Source: an uncultured Actinomycetota bacterium (GTDB lineage Bacteria > Actinomycetota > Humimicrobiia > Humimicrobiales > Humimicrobiaceae). Taken from it: a stretch of 64,000 nucleotides of DNA. Where the stretch lies: contig CAZODQ010000005.1 of NCBI GenBank assembly GCA_964578625.1, positions 1,260-65,259 of the forward strand, written 5' to 3'. Below the pieces are notes generated by a model. That model was not told the origin of the DNA and did not search any database. It saw nothing but the letters and a program-made list of their open reading frames with translations. Of the stretch, positions 55,431-61,748 are shown in pieces. The position numbers and the translations under genes are program-made. Position 1 is the stretch's first letter; every line of letters starts with the position of its first letter.

Positions 55431-55522
55431 GGTTTTACTGGCTGCCCCGGGTTACGAAATTTCGAACCTTTTTTGAAAGGATTAATAGATTTAAACAGAA
55501 TATTTTTAATTAAATCTGATTG
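55431..55522 (+). repeat. possible diverged copy (E) of the intergenic repeat family (ggctg...gaacc...atattttta...ctgattg)
   Basis: Hand alignment with copies A, B and C shows a shared 5' tggctg, a gaacc core, and the 3' atatttttat / ctgaattgatt blocks. Confidence 0.3.
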
Positions 55523-55662
55523 ATATTCGTCTGAGGCTTCTAGGGATATTTCTGTTTTATATAGAAATTACCATAAAACAACTTGTAAGGGCTTGCCATG
55601 TTATTAAAATGACAAAATATTAAGGAATTGATAGGATTAAATAATAATATAAAATAAATAAA

Positions 55663-55890
55663 ATGGTGTTTTTAAAAAAGAATTATTTAACAACAAAAAA
55701 AGAATTTTTTAAAATATTAACTATCACTTTTATTTTGGTTTTTATAACGGATTCAATTGTAATATATCTGTGGAATTTCATTATTCATGCTAAAGGTGCT
55801 TTTAATTGGGGAATTAGTATAGGTTTATCAATTACTATAAGTGTAGCAATTTCATTAGCAACGACTAAAAAGGAAGAGAAGAAAAAATAA
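55663..55890 (+). CDS. small membrane protein
   Basis: Two TM helices in a 75-aa protein. Confidence 0.3.
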   Translation: MVFLKKNYLTTKKEFFKILTITFILVFITDSIVIYLWNFIIHAKGAFNWGISIGLSITISVAISLATTKKEEKKK

Positions 55891-55990
55891 GAATTAATAA
55901 ATAATATCCTTTTCAATTATCATCTTACCCAGATTCACATTTTATAATATTAAACTCTGATCATATTATTACTAATCGAAATTGTAAGTT

Positions 55991-56020
55991 TAGATAGTTG
56001 GCTGGGCGTTGTGGTCAGGA
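55991..56020 (+). repeat. partial copy (D) of the 5' end of the intergenic repeat (tagttggctggg ... gtggtcagg)
   Basis: The 12-nt identity tagttggctggg with copy A, and gtggtcagg with the A/B leader, were read directly. Confidence 0.3.
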
Positions 56021-56203
56021 TTTAAAATGAGACAAATGGGATACTATAAAAAAGAGTGTCTTATATACAATTTAGTCAAAAGAATATAAGCATAGATTTT
56101 GTCTTAACTGGGTATATAATTTTCGTTTTGTTCTCAGAATCTCTAGGAAGAAATAACTTGACATTAAATCTAATTTGTAATAATTTCTTAATTAAGAATA
56201 CAT

Positions 56204-56680
56204 TTGGATTTAGCAAGGAGTTTTTTGAATATTCTTCCAGAAGAACTAAAAAAACGAATGGGTCAATTCAAAGAAGCACTAAAGAAATCCGGAATAAAGT
56301 TGACTCATCAGCGTCTGGAGATATTTAAAGAAGTAGCAAAGTCTGTCAATCACCCGGATGCAGCTGCTATTTTCAAAGGTGTCCGCAAAAGAGTACCCAC
56401 AATATCCCTAGATACAGTATACAGGGCGCTATGGATGCTTTTTGATATGGGTATTATAACCATCCTGGGAATAAATCAAAAGAAAACCAGGTTTGATGCA
56501 AATATGAAAGCCCATCACCACTTCGTGTGCTCGAGATGTGGAAAGATTCTGGACTTTTATAGTAAGGAGTTTGACCGGCTGAAAGTTCCAGATAATGCTA
56601 AAGCAATAGGTAATGTTCACAGTACACGAGTAGTAGTCAAAGGTAACTGCGTTCAGTGTTTAAAGAAGATAAAAAATTAG
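56204..56680 (+). CDS. perR: Fur-family transcriptional regulator, PerR-like (peroxide stress)
   Basis: Fur-fold regulator with HHHF and CxxC...CxxC metal sites, immediately upstream of katG. The likely start is the TTG at 56225, 5 nt after AAGGAG. Confidence 0.7.
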
Positions 56681-56697
56681 TTAAGGAGGATTATCTG

Positions 56698-59190: not shown

Positions 59191-59367
59191 TCTTTTTAAA
59201 GGTTTAATTATTTTTTAATTTTCTATATTGCTCACTACTTATTCACTTACTAAAAGAATATTTAATTACATGCTTTCATAATTATCTAAATAGATTGACC
59301 TTTCCAAAAAAGTTTGAAATTGTAAACATAATGGTTACCGGGTCTTGATATATATCACTACTGCCTG

Positions 59368-60435
59368 CTAATCAGTATATACTATATGGAGTGTCGCATT
59401 ATCACAATAAATTCTAGCAGCATCGAATAATCCATCATTATCTGAATCAACATTAAGTCCGAGCTTAATCTGGAAATAATCCCTTATATCATTATCAAGC
59501 ACATCCTGCAGTTCATTTTCAAGAGTTGTTCCATCAATCGTAGAGGTTGTAGCAGAAAGAGCAATATTTGCCAGGAATGTTCCACCAATTCGAGTATCTG
59601 TTGGTTCAAGCCTTACATAATTGAATACTTTAACTACGATTTCATCAGCCCAATCTGAAGGATTGCCATAGTAATCGATATCTGAAAAGTATATATCTGC
59701 TTCCTGAACTGTCTTACCATGCAGCTCTATGATGTCGAAACTGAAATAACCTCTTATAAATTCATCAGCTTCATTATCACCCATTTCTGCAAGACTCATA
59801 GCATGTACATCTCCTCCTTCAGTTATCCAACCAGATATACTCGGGTCTGCATATATGGTTACTTCACTGGTTACTTCATCACCATCTCCATCTCCACCTT
59901 CATCTCTATCTTCGTCAGCCTCAGCAACTTCTTCTTCATCACATCCCCAGCTAAGTTCTATGGAATCAGTGGCAGTATCTTTGGGATTAGTTGCGGTAGC
60001 GGTAAGAGTAAATGTCTCATCAGGATCATGAAGGTTTACCTGGGCAATAGTATTTCCCAGACGACCCAGACTGTCATCTTTATTCCATTCTATATCGGGA
60101 GTTGGATTACCAGAAACAATCGCCTTTACCCTCCAGTAGCATACATCATCTGCTGATGAGTAAAGAGGCCCTTCATCTATTTCCAGCTCTACTGTGGGCT
60201 CTACCATGTCTTCTTCTGCTACTTCCTCTTCTTCTTCGGTTTCTTCTTCAGTCTCTTCTTCTGTAGCTTCCTCCTCAGCAGCTGTTGTTTCCTCTTCAGT
60301 CACTTCCTCTTCTTCTCCAACATCTGTCTTTTCTTCTTCGGCAGCTGCTGTGCATTGATTGCAGACAGCAGAGAAACTGAAAAGAAAAACTACGGTAAGG
60401 ATAGAAAGTAAGATATAGAATTTATTTTTTTTCAT
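59368..60435 (-). CDS. acidic lipoprotein of unknown function
   Basis: Lipobox FSAVC, a long Glu-rich linker (EEEATEEETEEETEEEEE), and a C-terminal Asp-rich domain. Confidence 0.5.
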   Translation of the reverse strand: MKKNKFYILLSILTVVFLFSFSAVCNQCTAAAEEEKTDVGEEEEVTEEETTAAEEEATEEETEEETEEEEEVAEEDMVEPTVELEIDEGPLYSSADDVCYWRVKAIVSGNPTPDIEWNKDDSLGRLGNTIAQVNLHDPDETFTLTATATNPKDTATDSIELSWGCDEEEVAEADEDRDEGGDGDGDEVTSEVTIYADPSISGWITEGGDVHAMSLAEMGDNEADEFIRGYFSFDIIELHGKTVQEADIYFSDIDYYGNPSDWADEIVVKVFNYVRLEPTDTRIGGTFLANIALSATTSTIDGTTLENELQDVLDNDIRDYFQIKLGLNVDSDNDGLFDAARIYCDNATLHIVYTD

Positions 60436-60540
60436 GATACCCCCTTAAATCTAAGACTGATTAGTATGTAATTAAATATAATTATTAAGAATTATTATAT
60501 AACTTTGATTACAAAATGGTAGTTATTGAGACTTATATTT

Positions 60541-60621
60541 AGTGGTCATTGGCTGGGGACGGTGGACAAAGTTAGAACCAAATTATTAAGCTTAAATGAG
60601 GATATTTTTATACCTGAATTG
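60541..60621 (+). repeat. intergenic repeat copy B
   Basis: agtggtcattggctggggacggtggacaaagttagaaccaaattattaagcttaaatgaggatatttttatacctgaattg. Confidence 0.75.
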
Positions 60622-60650
60622 ATTTAGTTATTATATATTATCAAACTTAT

Positions 60651-61514
60651 TTAACTATTCGATAAAAATTTCTTTAAAACTTTCACATACTCTGTCGGTT
60701 CTGTATAACCAGGAGTATGTCCTGCTTGGTTAAAGGTGTGAACATATGCTTTTGGGTAAAGACTTTTTAGCTCTTCTCGGGCTTCCTTTTTTATTACATC
60801 ATCAGAAGATTCCATAATCAGTATTTTCCCTGGCCAGTTATTTAAATCACCTCTTGAAAATTTATAATTTTTCATAAAATCATATGAAGCTTTATACTGG
60901 TTAATTATTTCTTCCCTGGTAACTTTGAAATAAAACAGTTCTGTTATAAATGCTTCCCAGAATTCCTTATCTCTATCGGTTACTTTAAATAATTTAAAAT
61001 AATTTCTTTTCAGCCCGTACCTTAAAATCTTTAATGGATATTTAGGGATTAAAAAAATGGCAAGCTTTAGTATTCTTTCGGATATTGTCGAACCACTACC
61101 GGAAGTATTAGATAGAATGAGTTTTTTTACAGTATCAGGATATTTTCTAATAAAAGCTTGAGCGAGCCATCCTCCAAATGATTGTCCTAAAAGATATACT
61201 TCTTTTGCTTCCTCAATTTTAATTATTTTAAATATTCCTTCAATACCTTCCTCTATAGATTTTATAGCAGGATAGGTCGGAGAGATTATCCTATAGTCAT
61301 TTTCCAGTATGGTTATTAATTTCTCCCAAGTTTCAGCTGACCTAATACCACCAGGGAGAAGAACAACTGTGTTTTTAGCTTTTCCAGTAGATATATATTT
61401 CCAGTTTAGGCTATCCAGCATTAAATTTTTATATGGATGATTTTCTCTAAATTTGAAAAATCTTTTTCTCTGTTCATCAGGTACTTTTTTATATAGTTTC
61501 TCAAAATTTTGCAT
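60651..61514 (-). CDS. alpha/beta hydrolase fold protein
   Basis: Nucleophile elbow GQSFGG and a conserved His near the C-terminus. Confidence 0.65.
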   Translation of the reverse strand: MQNFEKLYKKVPDEQRKRFFKFRENHPYKNLMLDSLNWKYISTGKAKNTVVLLPGGIRSAETWEKLITILENDYRIISPTYPAIKSIEEGIEGIFKIIKIEEAKEVYLLGQSFGGWLAQAFIRKYPDTVKKLILSNTSGSGSTISERILKLAIFLIPKYPLKILRYGLKRNYFKLFKVTDRDKEFWEAFITELFYFKVTREEIINQYKASYDFMKNYKFSRGDLNNWPGKILIMESSDDVIKKEAREELKSLYPKAYVHTFNQAGHTPGYTEPTEYVKVLKKFLSNS

Positions 61515-61677
61515 ATTTCATTAATAGAATAATTTTACTATTAGAATACATAAATATTTTTAGCAGTTATTTATCATCTTCATCCAATATAAAAATGCTG
61601 TGTCAATTTTATAGTAATTATATAATTTCAGCAAAATATATAAAGGGTATTTCTAAGCCGAAAATATAGTTTTTTAT

Positions 61678-61748
61678 GGTTGGGGACAGTGGACAAAGTT
61701 AGAACCAAATTATTAAGCTTAAATGAGGATATTTTTATTCCAGAATTA
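61678..61748 (+). repeat. intergenic repeat copy C
   Basis: ggttggggacagtggacaaagttagaaccaaattattaagcttaaatgaggatatttttattccagaatt is almost identical to copy B. Confidence 0.75.

Follow-up and report, generated by a model that had tools for sequence, protein, structure and literature searches.

The window analyzed here is a 64,000-nucleotide (nt) stretch of contig CAZODQ010000005.1 from an uncultured Actinomycetota bacterium of the Humimicrobiales. Five short elements are confined to its last 9 kb, and none is found in the first 55 kb. Three of them (A, B, and C) are copies of a repeat termed REP, one (E) belongs to the sister family REP2, and one (D) is a short fragment. REP is a large, undescribed family of same-direction intergenic elements that occurs in uncultured low-GC Actinomycetota, including Candidatus (Ca.) Humimicrobiales. 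The repeats most likely act as recombination junctions and not as RNAs or promoters. The elements of the window and the modules adjoining copy A are listed below; L-numbers denote the comparison loci, of which there are about 95.

55438-55496, + strand: copy E, assigned to the sister family REP2 (REP2 profile match of 58.9 bits, E = 2e-17)
55996-56030, + strand: copy D, which is either a fragment or a variant of the tRNA-like module (match to the REP profile over 19 nt, E = 17)
59089-59117, + strand: optional upstream module on copy A, GAAGTTGGTCA..TTAGTGCAGTAG, which also precedes copies in L081, L069, L046, and L080
59118-59199, + strand: REP copy A (profile match of 66.3 bits; the 72-nt unit and the start of the extension)
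59200-59250, + strand: extension module 3' of copy A, related to GAGTTTTTAAGCTTAATTATTACTTACCCCACCATGCTACTCAC and conserved after many copies
60549-60626, + strand: REP copy B (profile match of 76.4 bits; core at 60549-60581)
61676-61756, + strand: REP copy C (profile match of 75.7 bits; core at 61676-61708)

Repeat copies in the window

Copies A, B, and C are co-oriented and are recovered by a repeat finder, by multiple alignment, and by profile search. The initial annotation of this DNA had described three near-identical copies in the same orientation, which is confirmed by profile matches of 66-76 bits each. Its intervals for A and B include a few extra bases of the left flank. When the window is searched with a 27-mer of the core and up to three mismatches are allowed, only A, B, and C match, with zero matches expected by chance. 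The tRNA-Gln-like core of copy A spans 59118-59150 and is read on the minus strand.

Copy E had been taken for a diverged or partial copy, but it is a full member of REP2. It carries the same tRNA-like 5' module as REP and a different 3' module, so that only the first ~33 nt are common to both. Copy D was rightly called partial. It matches only the first 19 nt of the REP profile and is not significant alone; by eye, 22 of 24 nt are identical to an element of L094 that lies beside a tRNA-Arg gene and a tRNA-Gln fragment. The public Logan unitig L001, which carries the hydrolase gene located between B and C, breaks inside both copies. Its two ends lie exactly where B and C cease to be unique, which is the signature of a multi-copy repeat. 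One further marginal match to the first 29 profile positions (window 6974-7000, + strand, E = 0.22) is probably due to chance or lies inside a coding region.

Anatomy of the repeat unit

The conserved unit comprises 72 nt with sharp edges (TTGGCTGG...CCTGAATT) and is followed by a looser extension of ~10-50 nt. The information content of 118 distinct copies resolves three near-invariant blocks, namely TGGCTG at positions 2-7, GTTAGAACC at positions 23-31, and GATATTTTTATACC at positions 53-66. Positions 9-22 and 32-45 are freely variable in the same copies. REP and REP2 have only the first ~33 nt, the tRNA-like core, in common; the remaining ~40 nt of the unit form a conserved AT-rich arm that exists in a REP and a REP2 version.

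The element is built from modules. Two alternative upstream modules and two alternative 3' arms (REP and REP2) occur, an extension of ~50 nt follows many copies, and REP2-REP composites are present. “Empty” units of 122 nt consist of the repeat and its extension and nothing more. Truncated copies start at profile positions 21-36 or stop at positions 38-42.

Distribution of the family

A total of 230 REP and REP2 copies were mapped by profiles in roughly 0.6 Mb of fetched DNA on more than 60 contigs. A, B, and C are thus only a small part of a large family. A 21-mer scan of metagenomes gave 29 loci, of which about 22 are true homologues. In species-representative genomes, an exact 23-mer found no match and a gapped pattern was needed; with it, 53 loci were retrieved from species-representative metagenome-assembled genomes (MAGs), nearly all of them labelled Actinomycetota or Ca. 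Humimicrobiales, with 30-38% GC. One fragmented MAG alone holds at least 18 copies over 10 contigs. No copy was present in the viral contigs searched, and a phage origin was rejected on this result. The literature search found nothing on repeats in this uncultured low-GC Actinomycetota lineage.

Organization of the arrays

Adjacent copies of both families are co-oriented in 104 of 104 pairs, and in the longer views every copy within a locus likewise points in the same direction. The median gap between adjacent copies is 836 nt. Among the 104 gaps, 59 hold one open reading frame (ORF), 22 hold none, and 12 hold two. L094 illustrates the clustering: ten copies on the + strand lie within 10.7 kb, and none is found elsewhere in the 21-kb view of this 148-kb MAG contig.

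The orientation of the genes is unrelated to that of the repeats. Neighbouring genes lie on the repeat strand in 202 cases and on the opposite strand in 199, the four gene-orientation classes around a repeat are represented 21, 20, 19, and 14 times, and convergent, divergent, and tandem gaps are occupied in chance proportions. A single regularity emerges, in that 3' ends of genes may abut a repeat, whereas 5' ends are separated from it by 50-90 nt of upstream DNA belonging to the gene. What lies between the repeats is a mixed set of genes, including HigBA, HicB, PadR, MscL, an aldo-keto reductase, PEMT/ICMT methyltransferases, PKD lipoproteins, a radical-SAM enzyme, and a heliorhodopsin-glycosyltransferase pair.

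A replication-linked orientation of the repeats was considered and dropped. The strand-invariant component of the GC skew relative to repeat orientation is 0.0025 when pooled, with 11 loci positive and 10 negative, and the signs are mixed among the five longest loci. Repeat orientation thus does not track the strand-invariant GC skew, and a replication-based explanation is therefore unsupported.

Two side observations concern the surroundings of the arrays. In L083, L041, L051, L032, and L033, an antisense REP or REP2 copy lies ~100-190 nt upstream of the heliorhodopsin start in a heliorhodopsin-glycosyltransferase operon; across these five MAG species, the type of repeat varies and the promoter and Shine-Dalgarno region are conserved. 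In L019, a match to group II intron domains 1-4 (9385-9523, - strand, 121 bits) lies by a 427-amino acid (aa) ORF a few kb from a repeat array.

Relationship to tRNA-Gln

ARAGORN, applied to all loci, places tRNA-Gln genes in L032 and L079 and tRNA-Arg genes in L028 and L094. On the minus strand the repeat ends with ...GGTTCTAACTTTGTCCACTGTCCCCAGCCAA, and the tRNA-Gln genes end with ...GGTTCGAATCCTCCCTCCCCAGCCAA. In the alignment, an invariant GGTTC.AA (the T-loop motif) and a CCAGCCA terminus are common to the repeats and the two tRNA-Gln genes. The terminal 11 nt of the subtype present in the window are identical to tRNA-Gln, and TGGCTG is kept in 88 of 112 REP copies. The similarity extends to the neighbourhood: the short hairpin module found 3' of the genuine tRNA-Gln genes (L032 and L079) recurs after the tRNA-like end in many repeats. 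In addition, a 22-nt fragment of a tRNA-Gln 3' end lies ~60 nt downstream of an intact tRNA-Arg(CCT) on two unrelated contigs:

L028, about 2370-2395, + strand: tRNA-Gln 3' fragment with tRNA-Arg(CCT), 22 nt
L094, about 19560-19690, - strand: tRNA-Gln 3' fragment with tRNA-Arg(CCT), then an element matching window fragment D

All four array-edge tRNAs (L032, L079, L028, and L094) point into the array, and the repeats read in the direction of the tRNA. Elements that have integrated at a tRNA gene show such an arrangement, which has been described for additive islands with tRNA direct repeats in Ca. Actinomarinales (PMC7771536).

Rearrangements at the repeats

Closely related loci differ at the repeats. 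The flanks of L096 and L097 are 94-99% identical. In L097, repeats enclose one segment with an E1-E2 ATPase and another with ArsP; at either location, L096 has just one repeat. Where L097 has ArsP, the L096 repeat is a hybrid: up to position ~38 it agrees with the L097 repeat on the left of the segment, and from position ~44 with the one on the right. The two parent repeats are dissimilar across this stretch.

Single modules are also found in different contexts. L044 and L048 share a HicB module at 92% identity, and the genes on either side of it are unrelated between the two loci. The match between them runs from about position 45 of the left repeat to about position 46 of the right repeat. 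In four related contigs with the same radical-SAM gene, the first module is common and divergence sets in beyond the next repeat. The left-repeat half attached to a 155-aa module occurs in three versions. We infer that the crossover takes place mid-unit, at about positions 36-46.

The copies of the window show the same behaviour. Its closest relatives, L084 and L085, are 96% identical in protein and 91% identical in DNA over 61770-63975, and copy C is the breakpoint of this synteny, which begins about 22 nt after the copy. The left flank of copy B (the lipoprotein region) is homologous to L009, and the homology stops at copy B. The comparison of synteny among relatives, suggested along with the initial annotation, hence finds that the repeats bound both indels and changes of context (L096/L097, L044/L048, and the window with L084/L085).

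Tests for RNA, promoter, and transposon features

No Rfam family (Rfam 15) matches any copy at the gathering threshold or at E ≤ 10. Fold energies of single and tandem units on both strands correspond to z-scores of −0.6 to +2.9 against shuffled sequences and thus indicate no excess stability; the fold tests reveal no palindromic units either. Base-pair covariation is absent among the 118 distinct copies, in which the mutual information reflects subfamilies. The lack of a fold and of covariation argues against a small RNA (sRNA) or an integron attC site. The sRNA or cis-RNA role proposed at first finds no support in any of these three checks. The random orientation of the genes and the occupation of all four gap types argue against a promoter or a terminator, and the early doubt that the element is a mere shared promoter is confirmed by the nearly equal frequency of the four orientation classes.

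Several more specific candidates were tried and rejected. Promoter readings (sigma-70, the Bacteroidetes-type TAnnTTTG on the minus strand, sigma-54, and extracytoplasmic function sigma factors) misfit in their spacings; a consensus scan places nothing consistent in the repeats, and their orientation to genes is random. A terminator would be at odds with the lack of a GC-rich stem. The subtype TTGGCTGGCCATAGCGAACGAAGTTAGAAC resembles the start and loop C of 5S rRNA, but is not recognized by the Rfam 5S model. A full T-arm of a tRNA, or a minihelix, was discarded, as its stems are unpaired and neither ARAGORN nor Rfam calls a tRNA at any copy. The coding of a small peptide was discarded because the variation lacks codon periodicity.

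Hallmarks of mobile elements were sought as well. The ends TTGGCTGG... and ...CCTGAATT are not inverted copies of each other, so terminal inverted repeats are absent, and the flanks contain no target-site duplication. A presence/absence search for a single repeat in an otherwise intact site yielded no clean case. No related transposase occurs in any of the ~95 loci. Of the initially suggested likeness to REP elements or miniature inverted-repeat transposable elements (MITEs), the interspersed and intergenic character stands; the inverted repeats, target-site duplications, and palindromes are missing.

Interpretation and alternatives

The repeats may represent att-type junctions of tiny cassettes, which a recombinase encoded elsewhere would have added one after another at a tRNA-Gln-like site; we assign about even chances to this reading. 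According to this proposal, the unit would combine a ~33-nt copy of the tRNA-Gln 3' end on the minus strand (T-loop, acceptor strand, and CCA) with the ~40-nt AT-rich arm. Small modules, usually one gene with its own promoter, would enter, leave, and exchange by conservative recombination between the sites. Every insertion would leave co-oriented sites flanking the module, and repeated insertion would give rise to an array extending away from the tRNA-Gln-type target.

Such att-type junctions account for why the copies are strictly co-oriented and spaced one gene apart, and why hybrid repeats, half-sites, and synteny breaks occur. Among the roles listed in the initial annotation, that of a recombination site bordering cassettes is the best supported, given the co-orientation, the one-ORF intervals, the synteny breaks and indels, and the tRNA-Gln-like end. 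The exchange appears to be site-specific, most likely through a tyrosine recombinase elsewhere in the genome, and not RecA-dependent homologous exchange, because the parent repeats are most divergent at the best-resolved crossovers and because the invariant blocks are preserved from species to species, as would be expected of protein contacts.

A number of observations weigh against junctions of this kind. The tRNA-like core is 5 nt longer than the tRNA, the exact acceptor strand is kept in only 19 of 112 REP copies, and the similarity to tRNA-Gln ends at position ~31 without reaching the proposed crossover zone. A tRNA-Gln gene is absent from the window. The switch points do not converge on a single nucleotide and in part lie at the 5' edge of the repeat (L028/L002; L006/L097), and a pooled test for linkage between repeat halves and flanks had too few pairs. 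All of the comparison loci are metagenome contigs and MAGs. In a Pfam census of 150 flanking ORFs and 215 families, no integrase or transposase is among the families matched at least twice, and no recombinase is annotated in the 18-21-kb views of L094, L096, and L097.

The recombinase is assumed to be encoded in trans. The only recombinase-like ORF near any repeat is found in L056, where a 174-aa fragment (4635-5159, + strand) contains the catalytic part of a tyrosine recombinase (Phage_integrase, E = 4e-10). It lies ~0.8 kb from a REP copy and 1.1 kb from a transfer-messenger RNA (tmRNA) gene, both of which are on the - strand (5948-6017 and 6250-6599, respectively).

A passive interspersed mosaic repeat of the known REP/BIME, ERIC, or BOX type, selfish or neutral and reshuffled as a by-product of RecA-dependent recombination with no dedicated enzyme, is a rather unlikely alternative that nevertheless accommodates several findings. 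The modular build, with its upstream modules, two 3' modules, extension, and REP2-REP composites, would be expected of it, as would the lack of a recombinase nearby and the variation of the apparent crossover points; deletion between direct repeats alone would yield the single hybrid repeat of L096. Random insertion, however, would not be expected to produce co-orientation in 104 of 104 pairs. The best-resolved crossovers are situated in the least conserved third of the unit, where the parents are too dissimilar for homologous exchange. The invariant blocks persist across many species with the other positions free, which implies selection on specific contacts, and the likeness to tRNA-Gln and the array-edge tRNAs are left unexplained. 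Another possibility, which we consider improbable, is a non-autonomous transposable element, either MITE-like or descended from a single-strand transposon, that inserts in an orientation dictated by the direction of replication. No adjacent transposase would be necessary, and co-orientation over at least 19 kb across ordinary-looking genes in L097 and the location of the repeats on the gene-majority strand in four of the five longest loci are in line with it. Yet the copies lack terminal inverted repeats, a target-site duplication, a conserved target sequence, and subterminal hairpins, and their orientation is not linked to the strand-invariant GC skew. They are clustered in islands (the five elements of the window all fall in its final 9 kb, with the first 55 kb empty), and the presence/absence search did not reveal an otherwise intact site into which one repeat had cleanly inserted.

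A cis-regulatory or RNA element, be it a small RNA gene, an untranslated-region motif, an insulator, or a platform for nucleoid-protein binding, is still less probable. Conserved blocks spaced ~22 and 32 nt apart, the A/T tracts, and the antisense copy kept upstream of the heliorhodopsin operon in five species could be read in its favour; the heliorhodopsin site, however, holds REP or REP2 depending on the species, and position and orientation relative to genes are random throughout. The failure of Rfam even at E = 10, the fold z-scores of −0.6 to +2.9 on both strands, and the missing covariation speak against an RNA. Integron attC sites in an array without integrase (CALIN) are very improbable. 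Co-oriented sites between mostly single ORFs, with toxin-antitoxin pairs among the modules, recall such arrays, but the defining structural feature fails, as neither the R''/L''-L'/R' inverted repeats nor a hairpin is present on either strand. The candidate GTTAGAA box is located mid-unit and not at the 3' edge, the gene orientation is 50:50, and no intI was seen among the recurrent Pfam families of the 150 flanking ORFs or in the 18-21-kb views.

The preferred reading of the repeats as att-type junctions can be extended to a system of its own. Tentatively, the arrays might form an integron-like gene-capture platform, in which duplex, hairpin-free sites of 72-125 bp, derived from a tRNA-Gln attachment site and occurring with either of two arm types, are served by a recombinase encoded elsewhere, so that self-expressed single-gene cassettes are collected into arrays and reshuffled; we regard this as possible but doubtful. 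Integrons are not known to have been reported from the phylum Actinomycetota.

Genes around the window copies

The genes that surround the repeats of the window were identified from their ORFs and domains:

56204-58899, + strand: Fur and katG, between fragment D and copy A (ORFs, domain search)
59368-60435, - strand: acidic lipoprotein with an Ig/PKD-like region, the module between A and B (ORF; homologues beside repeats in six other loci)
60651-61514, - strand: alpha/beta hydrolase, the module between B and C (Pfam Abhydrolase_1/6)
61943-63253, + strand: conserved 436-aa protein, right of copy C (possible nucleotidyltransferase fold)

The katG, acidic lipoprotein, and alpha/beta hydrolase genes are as the initial annotation had described them. 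The GC content of katG is 45-52%, compared to ~36% for the window, a contrast that suggests a foreign origin of the gene. Fur genes also adjoin repeat arrays in L002, L018, L028, and L094.

The gene right of copy C had been called nucleotidyltransferase-like. Searches of the 436/438-aa gene against Pfam, NCBIfam, and PDB sequences gave no match. At the level of structure, a model of the 436-aa protein with medium confidence (mean predicted local distance difference test score, pLDDT, of 64) matches the Megavirus Mg662 “ORFan” nucleotidyltransferases (Foldseek E ~5e-6, low TM-score), so a nucleotidyltransferase fold is possible on the basis of the model. The protein belongs to a family of more than 6000 database proteins at 67-96% identity, many of them from Anaerolineales/Chloroflexota MAGs, and its gene, at 43% GC, is richer than its surroundings. 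In more distant relatives, the gene is preceded by one for an Rv2179c-like 3'-5' exonuclease. A linked 438-aa protein common to several arrays was considered and rejected: the ORF of the window is unrelated to the radical-SAM ORFs of L002, L018, and L028, and the recurrence of 438-aa ORFs at arrays is therefore a coincidence of length.

Elsewhere in the window, tRNA-Ile(GAT) and tRNA-Ala(TGC) lie 17 nt apart (32943-33111, + strand), a pair that is usual in the 16S-23S spacer. The Rfam scan of the 64-kb window found no rRNA.

Comparison with known systems and implications

The arrays share features with several known systems. Additive islands and tandemly accreted, integrase-less (CIME-like) elements at tRNA genes, with the islands of Ca. 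Actinomarinales (PMC7771536) as an example, also consist of gene modules separated by co-oriented repeats that originate from a tRNA 3' end; their edge tRNA points into the island, and their content varies between close relatives. In contrast to a decaying tRNA fragment, REP is a conserved unit of 72-125 nt with invariant blocks of its own, a core that is 5 nt longer, and two alternative arms. It further differs in its presence in at least 18 copies per genome (a lower bound from one fragmented MAG), in being common to many species, in modules that are mostly single genes of ~0.5-1.5 kb, and in the lack of an integrase in or beside the arrays. Integron arrays, both sedentary chromosomal ones and CALIN, resemble the REP arrays in their single-gene modules, co-oriented sites, toxin-antitoxin pairs, variable content, and “empty” units. 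Unlike integron sites, REP sites have neither a hairpin nor attC boxes and carry a tRNA-like end, and the genes of REP arrays face either way with promoters apparently of their own, without intI, attI, or a common promoter.

The known REP/BIME, ERIC, and BOX repeats are likewise intergenic, modular mosaics that are lineage-restricted, reach many copies per genome, and break short-read assemblies. Those elements are palindromic or foldable and are not co-oriented. The present family lacks a fold, and its copies, which always share one orientation within a locus, are clustered in islands. MITEs are comparable in being short, non-coding, multi-copy, and intergenic, and differ in the terminal inverted repeats, target-site duplications, and related transposase that are missing from this family and from its ~95 loci. 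Direct repeats from a tRNA end that separate accreted DNA are thus already known as a kind. What is unusual here is the conserved 72-125-nt form with its own invariant blocks and two arm types, the large number of copies and species, and the integron-like single-gene arrays without a linked integrase.

The fragmentation of MAGs in this group follows from the repeats, since short-read assemblies break inside them. The 72-nt consensus is a direct probe for cassettes in metagenomes and for the search for the partner enzyme. If the repeats are active recombination sites, a widespread lineage of uncultured sediment and peat Actinomycetota has its own route by which single genes are collected and exchanged, with modules that include toxin-antitoxin pairs, methyltransferases, transporters, heliorhodopsin operons, and catalase. 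If this is true, it would be a route that integron finders, which seek hairpin sites and intI, would miss.

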